Source: Chloroflexota bacterium (GTDB taxonomy: Bacteria > Chloroflexota > Anaerolineae > DTLA01). Taken from it: a stretch of DNA of 64,000 bases. Under the pieces are notes generated by a model. The model did no database searches, had not been told where the DNA came from, and was given only the letters and a program-made list of their open reading frames with translations. Positions 2,062-46,252 of this stretch are shown here, piece by piece. Location: positions 10,243 through 74,242 of the forward strand of contig JADBJK010000055.1 in NCBI GenBank assembly GCA_014874485.1, given 5' to 3'. A program made the position numbers and the translations under genes. Positions within the stretch are counted from its first letter, which is position 1, and each line of letters starts with the position of its first letter.

Positions 2062-3156
2062 CTACCGCAGGTAGTCCCGCAGTTTGCTGCTGCGGCGGGG
2101 ATGGCGCAGCCGCGTGAGCGCCTGGGCCTCTCTCTGGCGGATGCGCTCGCGGGTGAGGCCGAACTTGCGCCCCACCTCCTCCAGCGTGTGCGTCTGCCCG
2201 TCCACCAGGCCGAAGCGCATCTGCAGAATCCGCACCTCGCGCTGGCTGAGGGCGCACATGAGTTCCTCCAGTTGCTCGCGGAGGAGGGAGCGCGAGGCCG
2301 CCGTGCTGGGGCTGACCGACGTCTCGTCCTTGATGAACTCGCCCAACTCGCTGTCGCCGTCCTCCCCGACGGGGGCCTCCAGCGACAGGATGCGCGTGGC
2401 CGCCTTCATGATGCGGCGCACCTTGTCCTCGGGCAGGTTCAGGCGCTCGGCCAGTTCTTCGTGCGTCGGCTCGCGTCCCAGTTCCTGCGCCATGTCCTGC
2501 GACATGCGGGCCACGCGGGCGATCTGGTCGTGCATGTGGATGGGGACGCGGATGGTGCGGCTCTGGTCGGCCACCGCGCGGGCCACCGCCTGGCGAATCC
2601 ACCACGTGGCGTAGGTGCTGAACTTGTAGCCGCGGCGATAGTCAAACTTCTTGACCGCGCGAATGAGGCCGATGTTGCCCTCCTGAATCAGGTCCAGGAA
2701 TGGCACTCCCCTGCCGATGTACTTCTTGGCGATGCTGACGACAAGGCGCGAGTTGGCGCGGATGAGGTGATCGCGGGCCTCCTCCCCTTCACGGACCCAG
2801 GCCTCCAGTCGCTCGCGGCGCGCGGGCGAGAGATTGGGCTGTTCCAGCATGCGCCGCGCCTTCTGCCCGCGCTCCATGCGCTTGGCGAGGGCCACCTCAT
2901 CCTCGGCGGTGAGCAGGGGCACGCGGCCAATCTCCCGCAAGTACAGGTTGATCGGATCGCTCACGTCGGCGGGCGATTCGTCAATCTCCGGGTACTCTCC
3001 CGCGTCCAGGTCGGGGACATCGTCGTCGGCCAGCGCTTCCATGGCAGGCCAAGGGGCTTCGTCGTCAAGGGGACAGAGGGCAAAATCCTCTTCCGGTTCG
3101 GTGAATGCAGCAACCTCGTCGTCCGTCTCGCCGATTGGTAGGCGGTTAAGGTTCAA
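2062..3156 (-). CDS. sigA: RNA polymerase sigma-70 factor (SigA/RpoD family)
   Basis: Region 1.2 through 4 motifs are present: [62 protein letters not shown], and the C-terminal 4.2 HTH. Confidence 0.9.
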
Positions 3157-3630
3157 GTTGCCTCCTCACTCTATGATCCATCTATAAAACGTGCGAACGT
3201 GCGATCCAGTTCCGATGAGACCGATAGGCTCACTACCACCGAGCGTTCCCAAACCCTTCTCATTATTATACCACAGTTTTCGTAAAATGGCACAATGAAT
3301 TTTCGCGTAGATTCGGTTTTGCCCCTTGTCGGTGGGGCGGGCCACGCGGCCTGCGCGAACCATCGTCCTGGGGGCGAAGCATCTCGGACGGGAACTGCGC
3401 CCTGCGCCGCTTCGTGCAGATTCGGGGTCTTCGCGTATGAAACCTTCACCTTCATTCGCGCAGGTCCGTCGGCCCGCGCGGCTCCGCGTTTCTTCGCCGC
3501 GTCGCGGTTGAGGACGACCGTGCCACCGGCAAACTGGGGTGGGCGTGTTCAATCAGGCCCGCCCCCACATCCCCCTTTGGCGCGCCCTGTGGTATAATGC
3601 GCCAACACCCACGAAAGGACATCCAAGCGA

Positions 3631-4125
3631 ATGGACGAAGACCGGACAAAGCCCGAAGTCGCCATCGCCGAGTTGCTCGTGCAGCGGCGGCTGACCTTGG
3701 CCGTGGCCGAATCGTGCACGGGCGGCCTTATCTGCCACCGCATCACCAACGTGCCGGGGAGTTCGCGCTATCTGGAGGGCGGCGTCGTGGCCTACTCCTA
3801 CGCGGCGAAGGAACGCATCCTGGGCGTGGATCACGACACGCTGTACGAGCACGGGGCGGTGAGCGAGGAGACGGCGCGCGAGATGGCCGACAACGTCCGG
3901 CGCGCGTTCGGCACGGACATCGGCCTGGCGGTTACGGGCATCGCCGGGCCGACGGGCGGGCTTCCGGGCAAGCCGGTGGGGCTGGTGTACATCGCGCTGT
4001 CGGCGCGGGGGTTCTCGCAGTGCGTGCGGCACGTGTGGCCCTTTGACCGCGAGGGCAACAAGGCGGCCTCCGCGGAAGCCGCCCTGCAGATGCTGCTGAC
4101 GTACCTGCGGAACCTGGACAGGTAG
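3631..4125 (+). CDS. CinA C-terminal domain protein (PncC-like nicotinamide-nucleotide amidohydrolase)
   Basis: LTLAVAESCTGGLICHRITNVPGSSRYLEGGVVAYSYAAKERILGV is the CinA_C signature. A TGgTATAAT extended -10 lies about 35 nt upstream. Confidence 0.85.
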   Translation: MDEDRTKPEVAIAELLVQRRLTLAVAESCTGGLICHRITNVPGSSRYLEGGVVAYSYAAKERILGVDHDTLYEHGAVSEETAREMADNVRRAFGTDIGLAVTGIAGPTGGLPGKPVGLVYIALSARGFSQCVRHVWPFDREGNKAASAEAALQMLLTYLRNLDR

Positions 4126-4134
4126 CGCGGCCCG

Positions 4135-4539
4135 CTACTTGCCCGCGCGTTCGGCCTTTTCGCGCACCTTCTGCCCGAAGCGCTGCACGTCTATGATCGC
4201 GCGGGTGTGGGTGCCCTCGCCGATCTTCTCCTGCTCGTCCCACGCTTCCACGCGGAACACCAGTTTGCGGCCGTCCACCTGCACCAGTTCGGACTTGGCC
4301 GTAACCGTCATGCCGACCGGCGTGGCCGCCAGGTGGCGCACGTCCAGGCCGATGCCTACCGTCCGGTGCCCTTCGGGCAACAGGTGGTCCACCGCCTTGA
4401 CGGAGGCGATCTCCATCAGCAGGATCATCTGCGGCGTGGCGAACACGTGAACGTTGCCGCTGCCCAGGTGCTTGGCCGTATGTTCAGGCCCCACCACGAG
4501 ACTCACCGTGCCCGTGAGGCCGGGCGTGAGTTGTTCCAT
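4135..4539 (-). CDS. Hotdog-fold thioesterase family protein
   Basis: 134 aa with a hotdog/thioesterase-like sequence. Start chosen at MEQLTPG, which is preceded by an AAGGAGGG RBS. Confidence 0.7.
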   Translation of the reverse strand: MEQLTPGLTGTVSLVVGPEHTAKHLGSGNVHVFATPQMILLMEIASVKAVDHLLPEGHRTVGIGLDVRHLAATPVGMTVTAKSELVQVDGRKLVFRVEAWDEQEKIGEGTHTRAIIDVQRFGQKVREKAERAGK

Positions 4540-4622
4540 CGGGTTCCCTCCTTGCGTGCGGTGTCTTCGGGCATGAAAAGAGCCAGGCACGGACGTCCTG
4601 GCTCGCCGGGTGTGCGCGTCGC

Positions 4623-6458
<1,836 letters not shown>

Positions 6459-6769
6459 CCTCTATCCTCCGTATTTCACCCGCCTCTGTGAGGCGCCTCT
6501 AAATCCATCACTCAACGGACGGCCCGCTTTGTCCCCGTCCATATTCCATTCCATTTCCAACTTTATATTATACCAGACTTTGCCCGTGCACACCAAAAAG
6601 CCCGCCGCGGGTTCATCTGTTGTTGCCAGGTCGCACGCCGCCCGTCGTGCCTGATTGCGAGCGGAGCAGCCTGTGCGCTCCGCGCGTCAGAACGACAGGA
6701 CGGGCAGGAGCGCCCTGGATAGCCCCGCCCTTCTGTTGCGACGTCCTGCGAAGCGCGTCGCAATTGCCC

Positions 6770-6962
6770 CCTCTGGTGCATTTCAATTTGGGGGTGAGGC
6801 TGTTGCCATGGGCAGCCTCTTTTCCCCTGACGTAGAGCGATGGATCTGCTTGACCTCACCTAACCCCTCCCGCACCCTCCCCTTTCCTCTCCGCGGGCGG
6901 AGAGGAAAGGGGAGGGCCGGGGTTGGGGATAGGTGAGGTAGATTCCGCTCGGCAACCTAACG
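6770..6962 (+). repeat. About 190-bp C-rich element with a long imperfect hairpin (copy A). A near-identical copy lies at 29271-29458.
   Basis: Aligns to 29271-29458. The internal 17-bp perfect stem is cctcccctttcctctcc/ggagaggaaaggggagg, and the outer stem is cctcacctaacccc/ggggataggtgagg. Confidence 0.8.
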
Positions 6963-7139
6963 ATGCTTGGTCATTCCGCCCCAAAATTGAAATACACCCG
7001 CCCCCTCTGGCGGTCTCCAGCAAAGCGTGGAACTGAGCGACACAACCTGCATTCTGGGTCCGCTTTTGACACGCGGCGCGTTCTATGCTATGCTTTGGCC
7101 AACAACACGATACGCAAGGCGACGAACGGGAACAGTAGG

Positions 7140-7455
7140 CGGCCCGCAAAGGCCCCAGCGAGCCGGAACGGTGAAAGCCGGCGCCCGCGCACCGCCGAAC
7201 CCGCCCGGGAGCCAGCGGCGAAAAGGCCCGCCCGATAAGCCGCTTCGGGTTCCGCCCGTTACCGCGGAGCGGTCTGGCGCTTTCCGTCATTGCCGATGAG
7301 CGCACCGACGAAGAACCTCGCGGCAGAGGATTCTTCGCTCCGCTCGGAATGACAATGACCGGAGGCAGACCGGCTGAGCGGCCGATGCCTCGGCCAGCAA
7401 GGTGGTACCACGGGGTCATCCGCCTCGTCCTTGTAGGACGGGGCGTTTTTGTTGA
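7140..7455 (+). promoter_or_regulatory. Putative T-box leader (tRNA-Pro sensing) upstream of proS
   Basis: T-box-like motif aaGGTGGTACCACGG at 7399-7413. It is followed by a hairpin ccgcctcgtcc-ttgt-aggacggggcg plus TTTTT at 7421-7453. A family-1 palindromic repeat (7285-7355) is embedded in the leader. Confidence 0.4.
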
Positions 7456-7520
7456 ACGACGAGCGGTCAGCAGTCAGCCCACGAATTCACGACCGCTGAC
7501 CGCTGACCGCTGATTGCTGA

Positions 7521-8987
<1,467 letters not shown>

Positions 8988-25749: not shown

Positions 25750-27072
25750 TCATGCGCGGGGCGCATCCGCCCGCCGGACGATGAGTTTCACGCCGTCCAC
25801 GGCGGTAACGACGACCCGCTCGCCCGCGCGGATGGGCGGGTCCTCTGCCACCGCCGACCAGGACTCGCTCCCGGCCAGGACGATGCCCGACGGGTTCAGG
25901 TCCACCTGCACGATGCCCTCCACGCCCACGAGCGTTTGCACGCCCACCGGCACGCGGAGGCGTTGGGCGCGAACCCCCGCCGACAGGGCGAACAGGAACA
26001 GGGCCGCCGTCCCCGCCGTAACCCCCGCGATGAGCCATCGGTTCACGTTGAGGTGGGGCAGCGTGGGCGAGGGCGGCGTGAGCGGGCTGAACAGGATGAG
26101 CGAGCCGAGGATGAGCGCGATGGCCCCGCCGACGCTGAGCGCGAACCCGGACACCTTGATGTCCAGCGCGAAGAAGATGAGCGCCAGCACGATGAGGGCG
26201 ATCCCGCCCCAGTTCAGCGGCAGGCTCTCCGAGATGATGAAGGCCAGCACCAGGCAAATCGCGCCGGTGATTCCGGGCAACACCGCGCCCGGGTGGTACA
26301 ACTCAATGATGATAGCGAGCATCCCGATAATCCACAGGACGTAGGCGATGTCGGGGTTGACCAGGGTATGCAGGAACGACTCAAACGGCGTCATCCGCGT
26401 ATCCACAAGGACCGCGCCGCGCGTGGACAGGGCTACCTCGCCGGCCGCGGTCTTGACCGTGCGGCCGTCCAGCGCGGCGACAAGGCTCGGCAAATCGTCG
26501 GCCAGCAGGTCCACCACGTTCAGCCGCAGGGCCTCCTGGGATGTGATGGCCAGGCTCTTGACCACCGACTCCTCGGCCCACTGGGCGTTGCGGCCGTAGC
26601 GTTCGGCCAGAGACCGCGCCAGGGCCGCCGCGTCCTGGGTAACCTTGTCGCCCAGGACGCCGGGGATATCCCCGCCGCTGGCGTCAACCGGATGGGCGGC
26701 ACCGATGCTGGTGGAGGGCGCCATGGCCGCGACGTGCGCCGCGAGCGCGATGAACGTCCCCGCGGACCCGGCCCGCGCCCCGGGCGGCGAGACATATACG
26801 GCCACCGGCACAGGCGACCCCAGAATCAACTGCACCATGTCGCGCATGGACTGAAGCGAGCCGCCGGGCGTGTCCAGCACGATGACGTACAGCGACGCCT
26901 GAGTTTGCCCCAGCGCGCGCTGGACGTAGCGCGTCGTTACGGGGTCAATGATGCCCTTGACGTAGAGCACGCGCACCGTTGGCTGTGGAGCCTGCGCCTG
27001 CGCATGGTGGCTCCCCACCGCCGACAACACGACCAACCCCAGGAGCGCAACCAGAACCAGTTTTCTCATCAT
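25750..27072 (-). CDS. NfeD-family membrane-bound serine protease (ClpP-class)
   Basis: Signal/TM segment, a ClpP-like domain VIVLDTPGGSLQSMRDMVQLI, central TM segments, and a C-terminal OB-fold domain. Confidence 0.8.
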   Translation of the reverse strand: MMRKLVLVALLGLVVLSAVGSHHAQAQAPQPTVRVLYVKGIIDPVTTRYVQRALGQTQASLYVIVLDTPGGSLQSMRDMVQLILGSPVPVAVYVSPPGARAGSAGTFIALAAHVAAMAPSTSIGAAHPVDASGGDIPGVLGDKVTQDAAALARSLAERYGRNAQWAEESVVKSLAITSQEALRLNVVDLLADDLPSLVAALDGRTVKTAAGEVALSTRGAVLVDTRMTPFESFLHTLVNPDIAYVLWIIGMLAIIIELYHPGAVLPGITGAICLVLAFIISESLPLNWGGIALIVLALIFFALDIKVSGFALSVGGAIALILGSLILFSPLTPPSPTLPHLNVNRWLIAGVTAGTAALFLFALSAGVRAQRLRVPVGVQTLVGVEGIVQVDLNPSGIVLAGSESWSAVAEDPPIRAGERVVVTAVDGVKLIVRRADAPRA

Positions 27073-29546: not shown

Positions 29547-29924
29547 ATGAGAGCAAGAACGCTGGACAACGGCTATGCCGCCATGGCGAAACTGCACAAG
29601 GTGCTATCCCACCCGGTGCGCCTCCGCATCCTGGAGATGCTGGCCCAGTGCGGGGAGGCGTGCGTGTGCCACCTCACCGCGGCGCTGGGGCGGCGGCAGC
29701 CCTACATCTCCCAGCAACTGGCCATCCTGCGCGAGGCCGGCCTCATCGCCGAACGCCGCGACGGCACGCTCATGTACTACCGGCTCACCGACGAGCGGGT
29801 GATGGACCTCATCGCCGCGAGCCGCAATTGGGCTGCGGCCAAATACGGGGAGTCGGTGCAATTCCCCTCGTCGGAGGAGGGTCCGCTGCCAGGATGTTCT
29901 TGCCCCGTGTGCTCCAGAGACTGA
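29547..29924 (+). CDS. arsR: ArsR/SmtB family metalloregulator with an As(III)-type CVC site and a C-terminal CSCPVC cluster
   Basis: HPVRLRILEMLAQCGEACVCHLTAAL (type-1 ArsR ELCVCDL-like site), wHTH, and C-terminal GCSCPVCSRD. Confidence 0.85.
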   Translation: MRARTLDNGYAAMAKLHKVLSHPVRLRILEMLAQCGEACVCHLTAALGRRQPYISQQLAILREAGLIAERRDGTLMYYRLTDERVMDLIAASRNWAAAKYGESVQFPSSEEGPLPGCSCPVCSRD

Positions 29925-30039
29925 CGGCCTTTACTTTTGCCGCCGAGACATTCAGAACAATGCATATTTGACAGCGGGGCAGCACGGGGTATACTTCAAA
30001 TGGGCAGCACGCCCTGTGCTTACCACCGGGATTGTTGAT

Positions 30040-30115
30040 AGTCTGTCATTGCGAGGGGCGAAGCCCCGAAGCAATCTCCGGCGCGCGAGATTGCTTCGCT
30101 TCGCTCGCAATGACA
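30040..30115. repeat. Family-1 palindromic element (tgtcattgcgaggggcgaagccccgaagcaatctcc...gagattgcttcgcttcgctcgcaatgaca)
   Basis: A near-perfect inverted repeat. The same family occurs at more than 10 loci in this window. Confidence 0.85.
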
Positions 30116-30213
30116 ACAGGCAACTTACTCTGTGGTCAACTACCAGGGCGCCAGCCTAAGGCCATGCCCCATTTCCGAGCCACACCGATGCAAGCGCGCA
30201 GGGAGGATGCACA

Positions 30214-30741
30214 ATGCTGTGCAAGGAGTACGACCTGGAAGTCATCTCGCCACCATGCGATCCGGGATCGGAGCGCTGGAGCGCCTTCGTGCGGCTCCAG
30301 GAGGACATCAGCGAGGTCATGCCCTACCTCAATACACTGTGGAAGAATGCTATCTACGACCATGAAAACCGCATCCTGACGATGGTGCGGGGAGGCCGCC
30401 GCTACACCCTCCGCCCGCACGAGGTGGCCATTAGCAACCTGGAGGACCGCCAGGAGGCCCAGCGCGTGGCCGAGCGCATTTTGGATGAGATCAACAGGGT
30501 GTGGGACAGGCGGCATGAGATCGTGCCTTCCTACGAGAAGCGCCACCAGCCCACCGTGATGGAAATCTACAAACTCCTGCCGGGCGGGAACTGCAAGCAG
30601 TGCGGCGACCCCACCTGCTTCGTCTTCGCCAGCAAACTGGTGGCCGGGACGACGGAACTGACGCGCTGCGTGCGCCTCTACGAAGCGGAGTTCGCCGACA
30701 AGCGAGCGCGCCTGGAGGAGATTCTGGGGTTGGTGGGTTGA
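30214..30741 (+). CDS. Small Fe-S protein with a CX2CX4CX16C (CFeSP/AcsC-type, PF04060-like) cluster motif
   Basis: NCKQCGDPTCFVFASKLVAGTTELTRC has the exact 2/4/16 Cys spacing. GGGAGG RBS. Confidence 0.6.
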   Translation: MLCKEYDLEVISPPCDPGSERWSAFVRLQEDISEVMPYLNTLWKNAIYDHENRILTMVRGGRRYTLRPHEVAISNLEDRQEAQRVAERILDEINRVWDRRHEIVPSYEKRHQPTVMEIYKLLPGGNCKQCGDPTCFVFASKLVAGTTELTRCVRLYEAEFADKRARLEEILGLVG

Positions 30742-30749
30742 GACATTCT

Positions 30750-32675
30750 TTGAAGTCCATAGCCGTGCCCCCAACAAAGTGCCTCTTCCGCCTAGCCGCC
30801 CTGATCGTCATCCTGGCGCTGGCCCTGTTGCCGACGGCCATCCACGCCCAGCAGCCGGTCGTCCGCGCCGTGCTGTTCTACTCGGACACCTGCCCGGTCT
30901 GCCACACGGTGCTGGAACAAGTCCTGCCGCCCCTTCAGGCGCAGTACGGCTCGCAACTGGAAATCGCGAAGGTGGAGATCACCCCGCCGGCGAACTACGA
31001 ACTCCTGCTGCACATGGAGCAGGTGCACGGCGTCCCGCCGGACAAGGGGGTGGTGCCCGAACTGTTCATCGGCGACCGCGTGCTGTTCGGTGCCGACGAG
31101 ATTCGCGACAACCTGCCCGCGCTGATCCAGACCTACGCGGCGCAGGGCGGCGTGGACTGGCCCGCGGGCTACGGCGACCAGGCGGGACCCACCACGTGGC
31201 CGCCCACCGGCGTCAAGCCCACGCCCAAGGCGTGCCATATCTGCGACGAGGGCGACCCCGTCGTGAAGATGTACTTCTTCTGGAGCAGCCTCTGCCCCGA
31301 ATGCCGCCGCGTGCAGGATGAGGTACTCGGGCCGCTGCAGGAGCGGTACGACCGCCAGTTGGTGGTGGACGCCCGCGATGTGGAGAAGTCCCCCGCCGAC
31401 TACGACCTGCTCACGGCGCTGGAGCGGCAGTTCGGCACGGGCGAAGGGGCGTTCCCGGTCATCTTCATCGGCGACCATGTGCTCCATGGCGAGCAGGCGG
31501 CCCGCGAACAGCTGGCCGCGCTGGTGGAATACTACATGAACGAGGGCGGCGTGGATTTCCCCAAACTGACCGGCCCCGCCGCGCCATCGGGCACGCCCAC
31601 CGGCCAGCAGCCCGCCATCCACCTGGCCTACTTCTACCAGGTGGGCTGCCACGAGTGCGACCGCGCCCAGTATGACCTGAAGTACTTGCAGAGCAAGTAC
31701 CCGCAGTTGCAGGTTCACGAGTACGACATCAAGGAGCAGGCCGCGCTGGCTGAGTGGCTGGGCGAACGCACCGGCGTGCCGCTGAACAAGCGCCTCACCG
31801 CGCCCGCGGCATTCGTCGGTTCGGACTTCCTGCTGGGCGGGGACATCAACGCCCAGACGCTGGAGAACGTCGTGAAGAAGTACGCGGCGACCGGCAGCGA
31901 GGCCTACTGGCGGGAGCAGGAAGACCTGTCGCAGGCGGGCGAGAGCATCCTGAGCCGCTTCCGCTCGTTCGGCGCGCTCACGGTCGTGGCCGCGGGCCTG
32001 GTGGACGGGCTGAACCCGTGCGCCTTCGCCACCATCGTGTTCTTCATCTCGTACCTGGCCTTCACGGGGCGCAAGGGCCGCGACATCCTGCTGGTGGGGG
32101 GCATGTTCGCCCTGGGCGTCTTCCTGACGTACCTGGGCGTCGGGGTGGGCCTGCTCAAGTTCCTGGCCAGCCTGCCGTTCCTGCCCGCCATCGGCCGCTA
32201 CCTGTACGGCTTCACGGCGGCGCTGTGCTTGCTCCTGGCGATAGGCAGCCTGTACGACTGGTATCAGGCGCGGCGCGGGCGGCCCGAAGAGATGAAACTG
32301 AAACTGCCCACGCGGATGCGCCGCTGGATCAACCGCGTCATCCGCGAAGGGGCCAGTGCGCGGGCTATCGCGGGGGTTGCGTTCATCACCGGCGCGGTTG
32401 TGTCTCTGATTGAGTTGGCCTGCACCGGACAGGTTTACCTGCCTACCATCCTGTTCGTCCTCGGCGTGCCGGCGTTGAGGGTGCGGGCGTTGGCCTATCT
32501 GCTGGTGTACAACATCGCGTTCGTAGTGCCGCTCGTCATCGTGTTCCTCATGGCCTACTGGGGGACGACATCGGAGCGGCTTGGGCAGTTCATCAACCGT
32601 CGCGCCGGCACCATCAAACTGGCGACCGCAGGGCTGTTCACCCTGCTGGCCGTTTGGATGATCACGTTCCTGTGA
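30750..32675 (+). CDS. Fusion protein: signal peptide, three glutaredoxin/thioredoxin-like CxxC domains (CPVC, CPEC, CHEC), and a C-terminal CcdA/DsbD-type thiol-disulfide transporter
   Basis: Three repeats, each with a CxxC...(V/F)P..FIGD..L.G pattern. The C-terminal 6-TM region carries LNPCAFATIVFF and a second Cys, as in CcdA. Start assigned to a TTG just after the upstream stop. Confidence 0.75.
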   Translation: MKSIAVPPTKCLFRLAALIVILALALLPTAIHAQQPVVRAVLFYSDTCPVCHTVLEQVLPPLQAQYGSQLEIAKVEITPPANYELLLHMEQVHGVPPDKGVVPELFIGDRVLFGADEIRDNLPALIQTYAAQGGVDWPAGYGDQAGPTTWPPTGVKPTPKACHICDEGDPVVKMYFFWSSLCPECRRVQDEVLGPLQERYDRQLVVDARDVEKSPADYDLLTALERQFGTGEGAFPVIFIGDHVLHGEQAAREQLAALVEYYMNEGGVDFPKLTGPAAPSGTPTGQQPAIHLAYFYQVGCHECDRAQYDLKYLQSKYPQLQVHEYDIKEQAALAEWLGERTGVPLNKRLTAPAAFVGSDFLLGGDINAQTLENVVKKYAATGSEAYWREQEDLSQAGESILSRFRSFGALTVVAAGLVDGLNPCAFATIVFFISYLAFTGRKGRDILLVGGMFALGVFLTYLGVGVGLLKFLASLPFLPAIGRYLYGFTAALCLLLAIGSLYDWYQARRGRPEEMKLKLPTRMRRWINRVIREGASARAIAGVAFITGAVVSLIELACTGQVYLPTILFVLGVPALRVRALAYLLVYNIAFVVPLVIVFLMAYWGTTSERLGQFINRRAGTIKLATAGLFTLLAVWMITFL

Positions 32676-32789
32676 TAGCCGCAGCCCGCGAGCGCGGCCC
32701 CGACTTTTGGGAAAAACCGGCGTAACGTGGTATCATTGTGAGTGCGGCGCTGGCCCCGCGATGGGCATCCGGCAGCGGTGCCGCGTAGT

Positions 32790-33005
32790 ACCCTGCCACA
32801 GGGTTTCTGGATGGTGTGTCATTGCGAGGGCGCGCAGCGCCCGAAGCAATCCCAGTCCCTGTCTGTCATGCTGAGCGAAGCGAAGCATCAGCGAAGCGAA
32901 GCATCTCGGTTCACGAGATTCTTCGGCGCTCCGCGCCTCAGAATGACAGTCGGTCCGGGATTGCTTCGCTCCGCTCGCAATGACAACGGGCGGTTTTCTC
33001 TGTGG
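32790..33005. repeat. Cluster of family-1 palindromic elements (two adjacent copies)
   Basis: tgtcattgcgagggcgcgcagcgcccgaagcaatcc ... catctcggttcacgagattcttcggcgctccgcgcctcagaatgaca ... gattgcttcgctccgctcgcaatgaca. Confidence 0.85.
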
Positions 33006-33035
33006 TCTAGCAGCAGTCCACTTGTGAGGTGAAGC

Positions 33036-34109
33036 GTGGCCAAGAAACGCAAGAAGAAACAGACACAGCAGACCCCTCGCCCTGCCCAGTCCGCCGCCAA
33101 GAAGGGCGAGGCGAAGCCGAAACCCAAGAAGAAAACCGCCCCCGGTGCCGGCATCAAGCGCTGGATCGCGCCCGTGGCGTTGGCGCTGGTCGTGGTCGCG
33201 GCGCTCATCACCGCCCAGGCGCTCATCCGCCGCAACGCCGCGCGGCCCACCGGCCCGTGGACCCTCACCATCCTGCACACCACCGACGTGGAGGGCTACT
33301 TAGACCCCTGCGGCTGACGCCCCCCCAAGGGGGGTGTGGCCCGTCGGGCCACCGTCATCAAGGACTACCGCGCCAAGACCCCGTACCTGCTCGTCCTGGA
33401 CGCAGGCGATGCGCTCTTTGGACAGCCGGTCTCTGACATCAGCCAGGGCAAGGCCCTTACCGAGGCGATGGGCCTCATGGGATACAACGCCATGGCCATC
33501 GGCGAGCGCGACCTGGCCCATTTCCCAGAACTCCTGGACCGCTCGCGCGAGGCCAAGTTCGCCTTCCTGTCGGCCAACCTGGTGTACGCCGACTCGGGCA
33601 AGCCGGTCTTCACGCCCTACATCGTGCAGGACGTGGGCGGGCGCAAGGTTGCCATCATCGGCCTGACCCCGGCCGACGATACGTTCAAGTCCTTCGTGCC
33701 GCCGTCAACGAACATCACGGCCAAGGACCCGGTTGAGACCGCCCGCGAGTACGTCGCCAAGGCCCACGCCGACAAGGTGGATGCCGTCGTCATCCTGTCG
33801 CACCTGGGCAACGTCATGGACCGCAAGATCGCCACCGAGGTGAACGGCATCACGGCCATCGTCGGGGGCCACTCCTACGACCTGCTGCAGGAGACGCTGC
33901 AACTCAACAACACCGTCATCGGCCAGGCGGGCTATGGCGGCGAGTGGCTCGGCGAAATCACCGTGGACTTTGACGCCGAAGGCAACGTTACGTCGGCGAA
34001 GGCCGGCGTGATCCCGCTCACCGAGGATTACGCCGACGACCCCGAACTGGCCGCGCTGGCCGCTCGGTACAATGCCGCGCTCCCGCCGACGCCCACCGTC
34101 CAGCCGTAG
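33036..34109 (+). pseudogene. 5'-nucleotidase/metallophosphoesterase-like gene interrupted by an in-frame TGA at 33315-33317 and with degenerate catalytic motifs (pseudogene, or a recoded/Sec gene)
   Basis: The two track ORFs (33036-33317 and 33336-34109) are in the same frame and separated only by TGA: ...HTTDVEGYLDPCG*RPPKGGVARRATVIKDYR... This is homologous to the HTNDxHG...GGxARxATxIK region of UshA-family enzymes. GNHEF is replaced by GERDL. Confidence 0.5.
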
Positions 34110-34131
34110 TGCACGCGGGGAGGTGTCCGCA

Positions 34132-34941
34132 ATGGCCGTGCTGGGCAAGACGATTACCGTCGTCGTGAAAGGGGGCGGCGACCTGGCTTCGGGCGTCGCC
34201 TGGCGGCTGTGGAATTGCGGGTTCCGGGTGGTGGTTACCGAAATCCCCGCCCCCACCGTCATCCGCCGCAAGGTGGCCTTCGCCACGGCCGTGTGGGAAG
34301 GCGAGACGACCGTGGGCGGCGTGCGGGCGCGCAAGGTAGAGGGCGCGGAGGGCGTTCGGGCCGCCTGGGCCGAGGGCGTTCTCCCCGTCGTCGTAGACCC
34401 CGAAGCCGCCATCATCCGCGAACTGCGCCCGGACGTGGTGGTGGACGCCATCCTGGCCAAGCGTAACCTGGGCACGCATATCACCGACGCGCCCCTGGTC
34501 ATCGGGCTGGGGCCGGGGTTCACCGCCGGCGAGGATGTCCACGCGGTCATAGAGACGATGCGAGGCCACACCCTGGGGCGCGTGATCTGGCAGGGCCAGG
34601 CTCTGCCCAACACGGGAATCCCCGGCGAGGTGGGCGGCCACGCCGAGTTGCGGGTGGTGCGCGCGCCTTGCGCGGGGGTGTTCCGCGGCGTGCGCGAAAT
34701 CGGCGACATGGTGGACGAGGGCGACATCGTCGCCTATGTGGACGCCGAGCCGGTGCGCGTGCGATTGAAGGGCGTCCTGCGCGGGTTGCTCCACGATGGG
34801 CTGACCGTGCACGCCAACATGAAGGTGGGCGACGTGGACCCGCGCGCCGAGCGCGAGCACTGCTTCACCATCTCGGACAAGGCGCTGGCCATCGCGGGCG
34901 GCGTGCTGGAGGCCATCCTTCACGCCATGCGCGCGGGCTAG
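34132..34941 (+). CDS. YqeB/EF2563-family protein (XdhC-like Rossmann; selenium-dependent molybdenum hydroxylase system accessory protein family)
   Basis: ITVVVKGGGDLASGVAWRLWNCGFRVVVTEIPAPTVIRRKVAFATAVWEGETTVGGVRARKV matches the conserved N-terminal pattern of this family. GGGAGG RBS. Confidence 0.6.
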   Translation: MAVLGKTITVVVKGGGDLASGVAWRLWNCGFRVVVTEIPAPTVIRRKVAFATAVWEGETTVGGVRARKVEGAEGVRAAWAEGVLPVVVDPEAAIIRELRPDVVVDAILAKRNLGTHITDAPLVIGLGPGFTAGEDVHAVIETMRGHTLGRVIWQGQALPNTGIPGEVGGHAELRVVRAPCAGVFRGVREIGDMVDEGDIVAYVDAEPVRVRLKGVLRGLLHDGLTVHANMKVGDVDPRAEREHCFTISDKALAIAGGVLEAILHAMRAG

Positions 34942-34985: not shown

Positions 34986-35452
34986 TTGTCATTGCGAGGG
35001 GCGAAGCCCCGAAGCAATCTCCGAACGTGAGATTGCTTCGCTTCGCTCGCAATGACAGATAAGGTGTCTTTGCGAGGGGCGAAGCCCCGAAGCAATCTCC
35101 GAACGTGAGATTGCTTCGCTTCGCTCGCAATGACAGATAAGGTGTCTTTGCGAGGGGCGAAGCCCCGAAGCAATCTCCGAACGTGAGATTGCTTCGCTTC
35201 GCTCGCAATGACAGATAAGGTGTCTTTGCGAGGGGCGAAGCCCCGAAGCAATCTCCGAACGTGAGATTGCTTCGCTTCGCTCGCAATGACAGATAAGGTG
35301 TCTTTGCGAGGGGCGAAGCCCCGAAGCAATCCCACGGGATGCGAGATTGCTTCGCTTCGCTCGCAATGACAGATAAGGTGTCTTTGCGAGGGGCGAAGCC
35401 CCGAAGCAATCCCACGGGATGCGAGATTGCTTCGCTTCGCTCGCAATGACAG
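34986..35452. repeat. Second tandem array of about 6 x 78-bp units of the family-1 palindromic element (variant tttgcgaggggcgaagccccgaagcaatctccgaacgtgagattgcttcgcttcgctcgcaatgacagataaggtgtc)
   Basis: Period 78 bp, with copies starting near 34990, 35068, 35146, 35224, 35302 and 35380. It sits in the convergent gap between the YqeB-like gene (+) and the CN-hydrolase gene (-). Confidence 0.9.
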
Positions 35453-35494
35453 ATGGCAATGCTCTCCGCAGTCAACCACGGGCCGGGCACGCCG

Positions 35495-36623: not shown

Positions 36624-38099
36624 CTACGGCGCGTAGCGGAACGGATGGCGCGCCGAATGCTTCTCGGCAACCAGTTCCTCAAACGTCGGCCGGCCTTCCA
36701 GCGCCTTGCGGACTGCTGCTTTCATCGCCTTGAAGTTGTTGATGCGCACCCGCCATCGGTTGCTGGCCCCCGGATGCACGAACACGTTGGCGATGAGCAC
36801 GATGTCGTCCAGCAGCGCCGGCGGCAGCGTGCCATCCTTGACCAGCGCCTCCAGCGCCATGACCACGCCGCCCGCCGCGTGCTCGTACACGTTCTCGGCC
36901 TGGCGCTTGGTGCGCACCGTTACCGTCGGCACCAGCAGCGTCTTCGGGCGGTCAAAGATGATGCGGAGTTCGTGGCCCGGACGCGGCTCGGCCAGCGCCC
37001 GCTCTATGGCCTTGCCCACCGGGCCGTCCTTGCGGCCGATGAGCAGGTCAATGTGGGCCAGTTCCGAGAAGGGCGGGCCGGCGAACCCCTCGCCCACCAG
37101 GAGCGTCATGTCCCGCACCTCACTGGGTGCGGCGGGCGGCTTGGGGAACTGGCTCGTCGCCGTCGGGCCGCCCGGGTACAGGTGGTAGGTCATGGGGCGC
37201 GGCGGAATCTTGCCCAACTCCTCCAGCACGCCGCGCACCTCTTCGTAATCCTCGCGGCGGAAGGCGTCGCCCTTCATCATCGGGTGGCGCGAATCGCCGA
37301 TGGGAAGCCCCAGCAGTTGCAGCGCCTCCTTGACCGCCTGGGTCGGCCCCTGCCGCGCCAAGATGCGGACGAACCGCTGGATGCGCGCCATCAGGGTCTG
37401 CGCCGTCGCCAGGTCGCCCGACAGGACGGCCTTGTAGATGGTCTGCCACACGTCCGGGATGACGTTGGCGCTGGCCAAGATCGCGCCGTCGGCTCCCATC
37501 GCCAGCGCGGCGGGCACGATTTCGTCGTGGCCAGTGAAGATGCCGATCTTGCCGCGCACCTTCTCAAACACCGCCATCAGGTAGGGCATGTCGCCGCTGG
37601 AGTCCTTGATGCCCACGACGTTCTCCAGATAGGCCATGCCCTCGGTCGTCCACCACTGGTAGTGCGTCCCCGCGCACTGGGGGATGTTGTACAGGATGAG
37701 CGGCACGCCCAGTTTGTTCAGCGCGTCGTAGTGATCGTACACCTCGTTAAACGACGGCTTGAGGTAATAGGGCGCGGCGACCAGAGCGGCCGTAACGCCC
37801 GCGTCCCTGGCCCACGCCGTCATCTTGACCGTCTCGCGGGTGGACGGGTAGGCCGTGCCCGCCACGACCGGCACGCGCCCGTTGACCTCATCCAGGGCGA
37901 TCTCAATGGCCCGCTTGCGCTCGTCTTCCAGCATGTACACGAATTCGCCCGTCGTGCCGCAGGGGACGATGCCATTGACATGGGGCAGGACGTAGCGGAT
38001 GAGTTCGCGGTAGGCGGCCTCATCCACCCGGTCGTCCTTGGTGAAGGGCGTTACCAGGGCAGGGAAGATTCCTTTGAACCAATCGGGTTTCTTTGACAT
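36624..38099 (-). CDS. Fusion of a DapA/NAL-family (dihydrodipicolinate synthase-like) lyase with a C-terminal formaldehyde-activating enzyme (Fae) domain
   Basis: N-terminal GIFPALVTPF...VPCGTTGEF... is DapA-family. The C-terminal LLVGEGFAGPPFSELAHIDLLIGRKDGPV...DDIVLIANVFVHP...KHSARHPF aligns with Fae ([20 protein letters not shown]...KSATHPF). Start at MSKKPDWF with an AAGGAGAG RBS. Confidence 0.8.
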   Translation of the reverse strand: MSKKPDWFKGIFPALVTPFTKDDRVDEAAYRELIRYVLPHVNGIVPCGTTGEFVYMLEDERKRAIEIALDEVNGRVPVVAGTAYPSTRETVKMTAWARDAGVTAALVAAPYYLKPSFNEVYDHYDALNKLGVPLILYNIPQCAGTHYQWWTTEGMAYLENVVGIKDSSGDMPYLMAVFEKVRGKIGIFTGHDEIVPAALAMGADGAILASANVIPDVWQTIYKAVLSGDLATAQTLMARIQRFVRILARQGPTQAVKEALQLLGLPIGDSRHPMMKGDAFRREDYEEVRGVLEELGKIPPRPMTYHLYPGGPTATSQFPKPPAAPSEVRDMTLLVGEGFAGPPFSELAHIDLLIGRKDGPVGKAIERALAEPRPGHELRIIFDRPKTLLVPTVTVRTKRQAENVYEHAAGGVVMALEALVKDGTLPPALLDDIVLIANVFVHPGASNRWRVRINNFKAMKAAVRKALEGRPTFEELVAEKHSARHPFRYAP

Positions 38100-38115
38100 G
38101 GGTCTCTCCTTTGCC

Positions 38116-39537
38116 CTACGCGCCGAACGCCTGGCGGATGGCGGCGTTCGTTGCGGCCAGCACCGCATGATACAGGGCGTGGCGATCCAGGGCCTTGGGG
38201 TGTACGCTGGCCTGCACCAGCATCACGTGCGTGTCCATGGCCGACTTGGGAATCGTGCCGTCTTCCAGCGCGTCCACGATGGCGCGGGCCACCGCCGCCT
38301 GCGTGGGGCCGTAGATCATGTTGGCCTGGCGCAGGTTCCGCAGTTCCGCCGTCGGGACGATGAGCGTGGACGGGCGCACGGTGAGGTTCGGCTCCAGGAT
38401 GGTGGTCAGCGCCTCGTAGCCGTGGCGCGGGTAGGTGAGTTGCAGCGCGAACGCCTCGCCCACAAGGCCGTCCTTCGGCCCCGCGACCAGGTCTATCTGC
38501 ACGTTCTCCGGCTCCACGCCCGCCGTGCCGGTCCCCACACGCAGCGAGGCGGCCTTCACCTGTTCGGCTGAGATGCCCAGCGCGGCGAACCGCCCGGCCA
38601 GGGGGCCGTCGGGCGGCGCGTAGGCGCTGTCGTCGGGGGCCACCTTGCCCAGGCGCTCCAGTTCCAACTGGATCTCGGCGCGGTCCTCGTGGGTCAGGCT
38701 GCCGCCGACTTTGAGCGGACGCCGCGCCTGCCCCACCGGAATCCCCATCATGTTCAGCGCCTGCTTGACGGCCAGGCCGCCGCCGTAGCGGCAGAAGATG
38801 CGCGACAGTTTCTGGACGCTACGCTGGAGCGCGCGGGCTTCCTCTATGCGGCCCTCCTGCACGGCGGCATAGACCTGCTGCCACACTTCGGGGTACACGT
38901 TGGCGCTGGCCAGAATCATGCCGGTGCAGCCCCCCGCCAGCGCCGGCAGCACCACCTCGTCGTGGCCGACGAACACGTCAATCCGCCCCTGCACCATCTC
39001 CAGAATCTCCATGGTGTAGGTGAGATTCCCCGACGAGTCCTTGATGCCCACGATGTTGGGGATGTCCGACAGGTCTTCCACCACGTTGCGCGGCAGGTAG
39101 GCATCCACCACCTGCGGGATGTTGTACAGCAGGATGGGGATGTCCACCGCCATCGCCACGTCGTAGAAGTGCTGATAGATGCCCTTGTCGGACGGGTGCA
39201 GAAAGAACGGGGTAACCACCAGGCAGGCGTTGGCCCCGGCTTCCTTCGCGTTGCGGGCCAGGAGGATGGTCTCCTTCGTCCCGGCAGCGCCCGTGCCGGC
39301 GATGATGGGCTTGCGCCCTGCCACCTCATCCACGACGATGGAGATGACGCGCTTTTGCTCATCGGGGGTCATGTACGGGAACTCGCCGGTCGTCCCGCAG
39401 GGCACGAACCCGTCCACATGGGGCAGCAGGTGGCGCACCAGCGCGCGCAGCGCCGGCTCGTCCACCTCCTCATCTTTGGTGAAAGGCGTTACCAACGCGG
39501 GGAAGACGCCCCGCAACCACGGCAGTTTTGCAGGCAT
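38116..39537 (-). CDS. Paralogous DapA-family lyase with a divergent Fae-like C-terminal domain
   Basis: MPAKLPWLRGVFPALVTPF...VPCGTTGEFPYM. The C-terminal LRVGTGTAGVEPENVQIDLVAGPKDGLVGEAF...HVMLVQASVHP is Fae-like. GGAGG RBS. Confidence 0.75.
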   Translation of the reverse strand: MPAKLPWLRGVFPALVTPFTKDEEVDEPALRALVRHLLPHVDGFVPCGTTGEFPYMTPDEQKRVISIVVDEVAGRKPIIAGTGAAGTKETILLARNAKEAGANACLVVTPFFLHPSDKGIYQHFYDVAMAVDIPILLYNIPQVVDAYLPRNVVEDLSDIPNIVGIKDSSGNLTYTMEILEMVQGRIDVFVGHDEVVLPALAGGCTGMILASANVYPEVWQQVYAAVQEGRIEEARALQRSVQKLSRIFCRYGGGLAVKQALNMMGIPVGQARRPLKVGGSLTHEDRAEIQLELERLGKVAPDDSAYAPPDGPLAGRFAALGISAEQVKAASLRVGTGTAGVEPENVQIDLVAGPKDGLVGEAFALQLTYPRHGYEALTTILEPNLTVRPSTLIVPTAELRNLRQANMIYGPTQAAVARAIVDALEDGTIPKSAMDTHVMLVQASVHPKALDRHALYHAVLAATNAAIRQAFGA

Positions 39538-39642
39538 TCGGGAACCTCCGATGCAAAATCTCGCGGGGCGCGCAGGGGATACCGCAGACCGCCGTCCGGC
39601 GACCCGGGCGCCCCGCACGCCACCGCGAACGATGCGAGTTGG

Positions 39643-44671: not shown

Positions 44672-45517
44672 CTACAGCAGACGGGAAATCCACGCGGCGA
44701 TGTCGTCCACCACTTCGCGGGCCACGTTGCCGGCCACGTCGTACTCGGCGGGGTTCGGCTGGCCGCTGCCCGCCATGAACAGGTGGTTCAGGCTGGGGTA
44801 CGACTTGAACTGCACGCCGGAGCGGTCGGCAAGCCCCGCCTTCCACGCCGCAAAGTCCGCCATCGTAACCTGGTAGTCCCGCTCGCCCTGGAGGATGAGC
44901 ATGGGCACGGTCAGCGATTGCGCCGTCGCGACGGGGTCATAGGCCAGGATGTCGGCCCAGTACGCCTTGCCCGCGCCCAGGATCACCTCGCCCTCCTTGA
45001 AGTCCAGCGCCTTGACCCGCTCCACCTGCTGGCGGAGTTCGTCCAGCGCCTGCGCCTCTTCCGGTGCAACCGTGCCGTCCAGTGCGGCCAGGTACTCGCT
45101 CTGCGCCAGCATGAGGTCGGCCAGGTTCCGATTGCTGGCCGCCAGCAGGATGAGGCCCGCCAGGCGCGGGTCGCGGGCCGCGATGCGCGGGGCCACAGTT
45201 CCGCCCAGGCTGTGGCCCAGGACGAACACCCGATGGGGGTCAATGCCGCTGACGCCGCGCAGGTACTCGGCAGCCGCCAGCGCGTCGTTCACAACCTCCT
45301 CGTTGACGGTCAACGTCGCCATGGACGCCATCATCTGGCCGGGGCACTGCTTGGTGCGCTTCTCGTACCGCAGGACGGCGATGCCCCGCGTCGCAAGCCC
45401 CCACGCCAAATCCTTGAACGGCTTGTTGGGGCCGATGGTCTCGTCGCGGTCATTCGGCCCCGACCCGTGCACGAGGACGACCGCAGGGAACGGCCCCGCG
45501 CCCTTGGGCATGGTCAA
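44672..45517 (-). CDS. Alpha/beta hydrolase (dienelactone hydrolase/peptidase S9-like)
   Basis: VVLVHGSGPNDRDE...LGHSLGG nucleophile elbow. Confidence 0.8.
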   Translation of the reverse strand: MTMPKGAGPFPAVVLVHGSGPNDRDETIGPNKPFKDLAWGLATRGIAVLRYEKRTKQCPGQMMASMATLTVNEEVVNDALAAAEYLRGVSGIDPHRVFVLGHSLGGTVAPRIAARDPRLAGLILLAASNRNLADLMLAQSEYLAALDGTVAPEEAQALDELRQQVERVKALDFKEGEVILGAGKAYWADILAYDPVATAQSLTVPMLILQGERDYQVTMADFAAWKAGLADRSGVQFKSYPSLNHLFMAGSGQPNPAEYDVAGNVAREVVDDIAAWISRLL

Positions 45518-45601: not shown

Positions 45602-46027
45602 TCAGGTGCCCCCGCTGCCGGGCGGGACAAACCACAGTCCGGCGATGCGCCCCTGGGCATCAAAGACCACCTTCATGTCCAGCGGGTTGCGGGCGAAATC
45701 GCAGGCTACGTAGGCGATGCGATATCCGGCCTCCTGCGTCATCCGCACCTCCTTGATGCCCTTGAGGTCGCCGACGTTGCGGATGACCTCCTCCCACGTG
45801 GCCTTGAGTTTGGCGACGGGGAACGCCGCGGCCATCTGGGGGTCAAACATGGCGGCGGCCTCGGCGTACTTGCGTTCCGCCAGCAGGTTGGTGAAGTACC
45901 GCGCGGCGGTCTCCAGGTCGCCGGATGGCGGCGTGGGCATGGGGGTAGGCGTGGCCTTCGGGCTGCACGCGCCGAGCAGGAGCAGACCCAGGGCCAGCAC
46001 ATAGGCGGGCGTCCAACTTCGCTTCAT
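45602..46027 (-). CDS. DUF3887-like lipoprotein
   Basis: Signal plus lipobox LLLGACS. Start at MKRSWT preceded by GAGGAG. The family is often encoded beside alpha/beta hydrolases. Confidence 0.55.
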   Translation of the reverse strand: MKRSWTPAYVLALGLLLLGACSPKATPTPMPTPPSGDLETAARYFTNLLAERKYAEAAAMFDPQMAAAFPVAKLKATWEEVIRNVGDLKGIKEVRMTQEAGYRIAYVACDFARNPLDMKVVFDAQGRIAGLWFVPPGSGGT

Positions 46028-46252
46028 GGCAGGCTCCTCAATAGCGAATTCCACGGCGCGGAATTGGGGCCATGCCGCGCCGCAGGTACCGCGCACGATT
46101 GTGCCAGAGCCTGGCCTGAGTGTCAAGACGCGGTGAGGCCGGGGCGCGGGGCGAGAACGTTCATCCGCGAATCACACGAATCGGCACGAATAGCGATTCG
46201 CGCCCATTCGCGGACAGCGTCGGCAGAAATGCTCCGCAGGTCAGGCTACGGG

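Follow-up and report, generated by a model that had tools for sequence, protein, structure and literature searches.

A predicted selenocysteine codon in a stand-alone UshA-like PCGU protein gene of a Chloroflexota bacterium

We analyzed a 64,000-nucleotide stretch of a Chloroflexota bacterium genome (GenBank assembly GCA_014874485.1, contig JADBJK010000055.1, positions 10,243 to 74,242 of the forward strand), hereafter the window, with a focus on a gene at positions 33036-34109 that contains an in-frame TGA. Two open reading frames (ORFs), 33036-33317 and 33336-34109, share one frame on the forward strand, and the TGA at 33315-33317 is the sole interruption between them, just as a first-pass annotation of this DNA had described. 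The first ORF opens with GTG and has GAGGTG just before it, and the second closes with TAG. Reading through the TGA gives 357 codons and the product ...LHTTDVEGYLDPCG-U-RPPKGGVARRATVIK..., in which U stands for selenocysteine (Sec). This product begins with a Lys-rich N-terminus, continues with one hydrophobic segment (W43-I64, encoded at 33162-33227) that reads as a signal anchor or transmembrane segment, and then reaches the sequence ...TLTILHTTDVEGYLDPCG-U-RPPKGGVARRATVIKDY.... The TGA would thus complete the motif Pro91-Cys92-Gly93-Sec94 (PCGU), encoded at 33306-33317. The G+C fraction at third codon positions (GC3) is 0.97 on the 5' side of the TGA and 0.85 on its 3' side, so that both sides look coding. 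A genome-wide reassignment of UGA was rejected because TGA is the normal stop of 15 of the 47 predicted genes in the window.

Searches for relatives placed the TGA in a conserved column. Dozens of homologs of 245-257 aa, ranging from 99% down to 35% identity, were returned by the protein search, and each of them starts at V/MARRAT; thus, all of these gene calls have been cut off just after the TGA. Among Chloroflexota genomes, TGA follows HTND..G...PCG in exactly the same column at 13 of 13 PCGU loci (35-47% identity), and the remaining 66 loci from the genome collection encode ordinary 5'-nucleotidases with HTNDxH and lack the PCG-TGA motif. The conserved motif around the Sec position is ...HTND..G...PCG-U-....GG(V/L)ARRAT. 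Metagenomes were scanned with a pattern allowing TGA, TGC or TGT at this position, which gave at least 121 matches. TGA stands at the Sec position in 119 of the 121 matches listed. Two matches, L164 (with TGA) and L190 (with TGT), are spurious, which leaves as genuine family members 117 TGA-bearing forms and a single Cys homolog, L152 (PCGC). A search with the Cys form led to a clade of Latescibacterota lipoproteins with the sequence ...YSGN.GG...PCGC.IP.GG.ARRAT. In total, Cys occupies the Sec position in L152/P0121 and the clade P0121-P0146 (PCGC), as well as in P0147 and P0149 (CGC). Coding conservation extends over both sides of the TGA in approximately 130 sequences, down to 35% identity. 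The first-pass annotation had proposed a Sec-encoding UGA that creates a C-G-U motif, with an alignment of orthologs as a check; the retention of TGA in relatives and the existence of Cys homologs lend support to this proposal.

Two hairpins had also been noted downstream of the TGA, in a placement loosely resembling a bacterial Sec insertion sequence (bSECIS) element. Both of them exist: hairpin 1 is CGCCCCCCC-AAG-GGGGGUG (33318-33335, a C7/G6 pairing, -15.0 kcal/mol), and hairpin 2 is GUGGCCC-GUC-GGGCCAC (33336-33352, -12.2 kcal/mol). The fold energy of the region is unexceptional for a sequence of 65% GC (z = -1.66), and the case for a bSECIS element therefore rests on comparative data. In an alignment of 14 orthologs, pairing is kept at 91% for hairpin 2 and at 54-59% for hairpin 1. 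Given this poor conservation and a family median of -6.1 kcal/mol, hairpin 1 was rejected as part of the bSECIS element; it lies as a spacer between the UGA and the core and is largely a by-product of the Pro-Pro-x-Gly-Gly codons. The SECIS-like placement noted earlier accordingly holds for hairpin 2, and the C7/G6 hairpin is not a conserved core.

Hairpin 2 overlaps the codons of V-A-R-R-A-T, and since this peptide, together with the retrieval pattern, guarantees most of its pairs, only two pairs are informative, each joining synonymous third positions. In a sample of 120 non-redundant sequences, the third positions of the Ala and Arg codons are paired in all 120 (C-G 90, U-A 29 and U-G 1; 98 expected if independent), and those of the Val/Leu and Ala codons in 117, with six pair types (96 expected if independent). 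For neither pair did any of 10000 permutations reach the observed pairing. The loop is always G[G/U][C/A] (GGC in 82, GUC in 28, GGA in 9 and GUA in 1 of the 120), which restricts the first Arg codon to CGG or CGU, never CGC or CGA, despite the GC-rich genomes. One locus (L078) has a different peptide at this place (GFRRRAT) and yet forms a displaced 7-bp hairpin with the loop GUU. The published bSECIS model (PMC13188914, Fig. 2) describes an apical loop of 3-9 nt, usually N1-G-[G|U]-N-N2, a stem of 4-16 bp, a distance of 16-37 nt from the UGA to the loop, and a minimum free energy of -7.5 kcal/mol or lower. Hairpin 2 agrees with this model in every respect, with a loop C-GUC-G, a 7-bp stem, 25 nt between UGA and loop, and the energy given above, and the energy limit of -7.5 kcal/mol is satisfied by 114 of the 121 hairpins in the family. 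It likewise shares with the bSECISearch-type consensus a loop of 3-5 nt starting with G and then G/U, a C-G pair at N1/N2, and an upper stem of 6-7 bp. There is no essential difference from the bacterial consensus, although hairpin 2 is more compact than usual and owes most of its sequence to the conserved VARRAT peptide. Rfam reported no family over the hairpin region. The bacterial SECIS prediction suggested in the first-pass annotation has thus come out in favor of the hairpin at 33336-33352, which both fits the published model and covaries at synonymous sites.

The best NCBIfam match of the read-through protein is NF041198 ('UshA_like_PCGU'; E 1.6e-51, 175.5 bits, profile positions 8-274 of 519), whose cutoff of 275 bits is not reached. 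A second model, NF049981 ('UshA-like (seleno)protein family 2'), gives 43.9 bits against a cutoff of 140. Pfam returned no match for the read-through protein, and both Metallophos and PF02872 are thus unmatched in it. UshA-like selenoproteins have been included in selenoproteome surveys since 2008: 'COG0737 UshA-like, CxU' was listed with 76 Sec sequences in the Global Ocean Sampling selenoproteome (PMC2398784; Zhang and Gladyshev), and two reviews tabulate the family as well (PMC9312934 and PMC13188914). None of these three publications reports a function for it. Judged from its sequence, the window protein is a member of this already catalogued UshA-like PCGU selenoprotein family, with a stand-alone architecture.

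With NF041198, the window protein has in common a UshA/CD73-type N-domain with PCG-U in the loop that follows motif I, the alternation of Sec and Cys at the same residue, and export. It differs in lacking the C-terminal half of the model (approximately positions 275-519), since it ends near profile position 274 and has no CxxCH, and this accounts for its score below 275 bits. The missing half aligns to the multihaem cytochrome c of three relatives. P0147, a UshA-like domain joined to a PF13435/PF14522 multihaem cytochrome, matches NF041198 continuously from 17 to 518 (268 bits); P0152 aligns best through its cytochrome region, on profile positions 400-513; and L117 (metagenome contig FWPV01073642.1, match 256-299), a Sec form, carries four CxxCH in a fused C-terminal domain (264 bits). 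PF13435/PF14522 cytochrome domains are carried by P0147-P0157, which are Cys-containing or motif-less relatives. NF041198 thus describes a PCGU domain joined to cytochrome c, and the idea that the missing half is a 5'-nucleotidase C-domain was rejected on the architectures of P0147, P0152 and L117. Six other short forms (five with Sec and one with Cys) score 130-194 bits against NF041198, none of them reaching the cutoff, and the members retrieved are short, with approximately 256-294 residues after the PCGU motif. NF049981 ('UshA_like_Sel_2', 262 positions) also describes a UshA-like selenoprotein that is short and single-domain; it is close to the window protein in length and aligns with it end to end (profile 1-260), but its motif is CxxU rather than CxU and the similarity is weak. 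In addition, tandem PCGU selenoprotein genes were observed in 13 loci, such as 619-662 and 1872-1915 in L085, each with its own TGA and hairpin.

The domain following the Sec position is homologous over its whole length to the calcineurin-like dimetal phosphoesterase N-domain of CD73 and snake-venom 5'-nucleotidase (E ~1e-46), UshA (1e-29), YfkN and SoxB (1e-23). Its metal site has been altered, as the first-pass annotation had pointed out from the replacement of HTNDxHG by HTTDVEG and of GNHEF by GERDL, both of which are real in the window protein. In place of the canonical motifs DxH (I), GD (II), GNH(E/D) (III), H (IV) and GH (V), the window protein has D-V-E, GD, G-E-R-D, H and GH, and the original ligands surviving in it are Asp84, Asp125, His256 and His279. 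Across 79 full-length members, the His of motif I is found in none (it is replaced by W, M, R, Y, E and others), the metal-bridging Asp of motif II in 26, the His of motif IV in 47 and the His of motif V in 8, and the Asn and His of motif III are replaced by assorted residues. The loss of the dimetal phosphoesterase ligands is therefore family-wide, and the term 'catalytically degenerate' used in the first-pass annotation was correct. Compared with CD73 and UshA, the family has lost the ligands of motifs I, III and V, the window protein has no PF02872 and ends approximately 260 residues after the motif, and it places a Cys-x-Sec pair in the loop before GGVAR. In CD73, a disulfide (Cys51-Cys57) occurs in this loop. 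An N-terminal hydrophobic segment is present in 74 of the 79 members and a lipobox-like site in 48, and many members have Pro/Thr-rich linkers, which suggests that family members are exported and membrane-tethered.

Three other explanations of the interrupted frame were weighed against a Sec codon. A decaying pseudogene, in which a nonsense mutation split a former 5'-nucleotidase and relaxed selection altered its motifs, would account for the substituted catalytic residues and for the GenBank records, in which each piece is annotated as a hypothetical or partial protein of its own. The same TGA column, however, is found in approximately 130 sequences down to 35% identity with both sides conserved, GC3 stays high across the TGA, the substitutions are family-wide while other columns are invariant, and the bSECIS hairpin has compensatory changes; a pseudogene is thus very improbable. 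The chance that a sequencing or assembly error in the C7/G6 homopolymers produced a false stop or frameshift is vanishingly small. Although these runs do adjoin the TGA, the reading frame continues intact through this region, and the TGA lies ahead of the homopolymers and is shared by relatives without them. Independent assemblies contain the gene either unaltered (L204, 100% identity) or with 22 substitutions but not a single gap (L082 and L083, 98% identity), which excludes an error of this kind. Both of these alternatives had been raised in the first-pass annotation and are contradicted by the conserved TGA, the covarying hairpin and the gapless independent assemblies. It is also quite improbable that the UGA ends a 93-aa membrane peptide and that translation restarts at GTG 33336 to make a 257-aa cytosolic protein. 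Most relatives do have a GTG or ATG 18 nt past the stop, and gene callers use it, but this 'start' is the conserved Val/Leu/Met of GG(V/L/M)ARRAT, with a Leu codon (TTG or CTG) in 51 of 120 sequences. Moreover, the 257-aa piece would lack strand beta-1, motif I and the export signal, the last of which lies on the 93-aa piece, and the Cys-form homologs are single proteins.

The internal TGA is thus best described as a predicted Sec codon, neither a pseudogene lesion nor a sequencing error, and the Sec and SECIS interpretation offered in the first-pass annotation is supported. Our reading, to which we assign a probability of about 0.9, is that 33036-34109 is a single gene whose UGA-94 would be decoded as Sec through the bSECIS element at 33336-33352, and that its product would be a membrane-anchored, extracytoplasmic UshA/CD73-type protein of the UshA-like PCGU family, consisting of the N-domain only.

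Evidence on the Sec machinery, which the first-pass annotation had asked to be searched for in the genome, is in part positive. The closest genome, a metagenome-assembled genome (GCA_054680255.1, locus L082; gene copy 98% identical), has a SelA (P0165) encoded on its contig BAAHHH010000025.1, and the sequencing run of L082 likewise contains SelA. In the window itself, tblastn searches with Escherichia coli SelA, SelB and SelD gave no match, ARAGORN detected no tRNA-Sec there or in 16 related loci, and the only tRNA found by Rfam over the whole window is tRNA-Val. A second PCG-TGA paralog, with a lipobox, is convergent to the selA gene of GCA_054680255.1.

With regard to gene order around selA, such a second PCGU paralog, which encodes a lipoprotein (...HTNDVRGFTEPCG-TGA-RPPKGGLARRAT), occupies 7391-8347 on the reverse strand of L206, convergent to selA (6001-7389) and almost touching it, and the same arrangement is seen in the Caldilineae locus L002, where a PCGU gene (2737-3570) adjoins selA (3583-4971). 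In two Chloroflexota genomes, then, a PCGU selenoprotein gene and selA, which serves Sec synthesis, are direct neighbors. Separately, in Ruegeria and Sedimentitalea (L044, L048, L053, L054, L060, L062, L065 and L069), ordinary HTNDFH 5'-nucleotidase genes have a selD homolog within approximately 3-6 kb; these Rhodobacteraceae homologs are 33-36% identical to E. coli SelD, and the synteny may be coincidental.

Thiol-redox genes recur beside PCGU genes in 13 of the 66 loci with enough flanking sequence. The set comprises a thioredoxin-fusion membrane protein, a membrane-anchored thioredoxin (CIPC) and CcdA (PF02683), and orthologs of the first of these adjoin PCGU genes in 12 loci. In the window, this protein is encoded at 30765-32675 on the forward strand and has three thioredoxin/glutaredoxin-like CxxC domains followed by a C-terminal multi-pass region with the sequence LNPCAF. 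Pfam reported only the thioredoxin/glutaredoxin-like domains in it and no DsbD/CcdA family; from the LNPCAF motif and the hydrophobic sequence, we read the membrane region as DsbD/CcdA-like. The CcdA/DsbD-thioredoxin pathway normally keeps exported CxxC(H) motifs reduced, as in System II cytochrome c maturation.

These fusions and neighbors point to a redox role. In the proposed mechanism, the UshA-type domain would have abandoned phosphoester hydrolysis, and Cys92-Gly-Sec94 would form a new active center, at the outward-facing side of the membrane, that cycles between the selenol/thiol and selenenylsulfide states. Electrons would pass through the fused multihaem cytochrome c in the canonical family. 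The stand-alone Chloroflexota forms would receive them from a CcdA/DsbD-thioredoxin relay of the type encoded directly upstream. We consider that such a change of chemistry, with the Cys-Gly-Sec center wired to a cytochrome or a thioredoxin relay, has a little less than an even chance of being correct. Another proposal is more doubtful, namely that the stand-alone PCGU proteins are not just shortened versions of NF041198 but represent a distinct and abundant surface-tethered selenoprotein family of Chloroflexota, a selenol redox catalyst built on a 5'-nucleotidase scaffold and served by a dedicated CcdA/DsbD-thioredoxin relay, with no cytochrome fused to it. Their substrate might be a chalcogen, metalloid or sulfur compound outside the cell, at which the ArsR/ArsC-like and YqeB context of the window's lineage hints.

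A different role for an inserted Sec is that Cys-x-Sec serves as a soft-metal or metalloid ligand site in place of the lost His and Asn, for binding, sensing or detoxification. The four ligands that survive in the window protein (Asp84, Asp125, His256 and His279) would suit such a site, as would an ArsR/SmtB metalloregulator gene at the head of the cluster and an ArsC-like low-molecular-weight (LMW) phosphatase in the strain with the 98% identical copy. These ligands, however, are not conserved family-wide and the ArsR/ArsC context is seen only in the lineage of the window, whereas the multihaem cytochrome fusion and the CcdA/thioredoxin linkage point to electron transfer; we regard a ligand site as unlikely.

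Several observations weigh against a Sec-containing PCGU protein with a redox function. Our literature search found no report of selenium incorporation, by 75Se labelling or mass spectrometry, for any family member, and the 64-kb window has no selA, selB, selD or tRNA-Sec. The read-through protein reaches the curated cutoff of neither NCBIfam selenoprotein model. The pattern used to retrieve the sequences for the covariation analysis fixed codon positions 1 and 2 of ARRAT. As to the redox function, it is drawn only from fusions and neighborhoods, the thioredoxin/CcdA association is found in only ~20% of loci, and the window is without the stand-alone thioredoxin and CcdA genes, both of which are present in L142.

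Stand-alone PCGU proteins are currently annotated as selenoproteins in no database. In public records, the gene in the window and dozens of its relatives are split in two, with a 93-aa 'hypothetical protein' followed by a 257-aa 'metallophosphatase/5'-nucleotidase', and annotation pipelines miss the short form because it falls below both curated models. What the present analysis adds to the known family is the loss of the dimetal site, export and membrane anchoring, the cytochrome nature of the second half of the full-length model, and the frequent CcdA/thioredoxin neighbors. In combination, these features offer a concrete hypothesis of an extracytoplasmic selenol redox enzyme.

The predicted selenoprotein gene belongs to a same-strand cluster (29547-34941) flanked by opposite-strand genes. 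The cluster begins with an ArsR/SmtB-family regulator (29547-29924) and a 175-aa Fe-S protein with a PF04060 domain (30214-30741), which stand in the same order in L082. Three extra genes are found in L082 (1555-3344) between the Fe-S and thioredoxin-fusion genes, encoding a Usp protein, a 75-aa ORF and the ArsC-like LMW phosphatase (118 bits to arsC_pI258_fam, below cutoff), and none of them is present in the window, where the interval is 30741-30765. Upstream of the selenoprotein gene, an intergenic region of ~360 bp (32676-33035) contains copies of a palindromic repeat, and the corresponding gap in L082 is also ~360 bp of repeat DNA. In the 86%-identical relative L142, the thioredoxin (CIPC) and CcdA genes occupy this place, at -1450 to -286 of the PCGU gene. 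No copy of these two genes was found elsewhere in the 64-kb window, and their absence from the window and L082 has the appearance of a deletion specific to this lineage.

Downstream of the selenoprotein gene by 22 nt lies yqeB (34132-34941), identified by TIGR03309 (383.4 bits against a cutoff of 220, profile 1-255 of 256) and without a Pfam match; it is probably co-transcribed with the selenoprotein gene. The adjacency is kept only in the close relatives L082, L204 and L142 (at least 86% identity). Since yqeB is not beside the 13 more distant genome loci, a link to YqeB as a family trait was rejected. The earlier view that a YqeB neighbor raises the prior for selenium use thus stands as regards the identity of the gene, but an adjacency restricted to one lineage is weak context.

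Immediately after yqeB, a 78-bp palindromic unit (…GCGAGGGGCGAAGCCCCGAAGCAATC…GATTGCTTCGCTTCGCTCGCAATGACA…) is repeated in 5.9 tandem copies (34987-35454), and single or partial copies were observed in the gaps 30030-30110, 32800-32990 and 1540-2000. The 11-mer core of the repeat occurs 20 times versus 1.6 expected, and the unit looks like an intergenic element of the repetitive extragenic palindrome (REP) or miniature inverted-repeat transposable element (MITE) type. Further along, 36624-38168 and 38116-39618 on the reverse strand are tandem paralogs in which a dihydrodipicolinate synthase (DHDPS)-family domain is fused to a formaldehyde-activating-enzyme (Fae) domain.

Three further in-frame TGAs in the window are likewise flanked by coding signal. 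The TGA at 25752 on the reverse strand was rejected as a Sec codon because it separates adjacent same-frame genes, the downstream one having a Met start, and that at 38569 on the forward strand was rejected as belonging to an antisense shadow ORF. The third, at 45602-45604 on the reverse strand (…GSGGT*RTPDYADP…), lies between the same-frame ORFs 45602-46126 (a DUF3887-like lipoprotein) and 44672-45517 (an alpha/beta-hydrolase), with high GC3 on both sides; the two are called as separate genes in L082, and we read this TGA as an ordinary stop.

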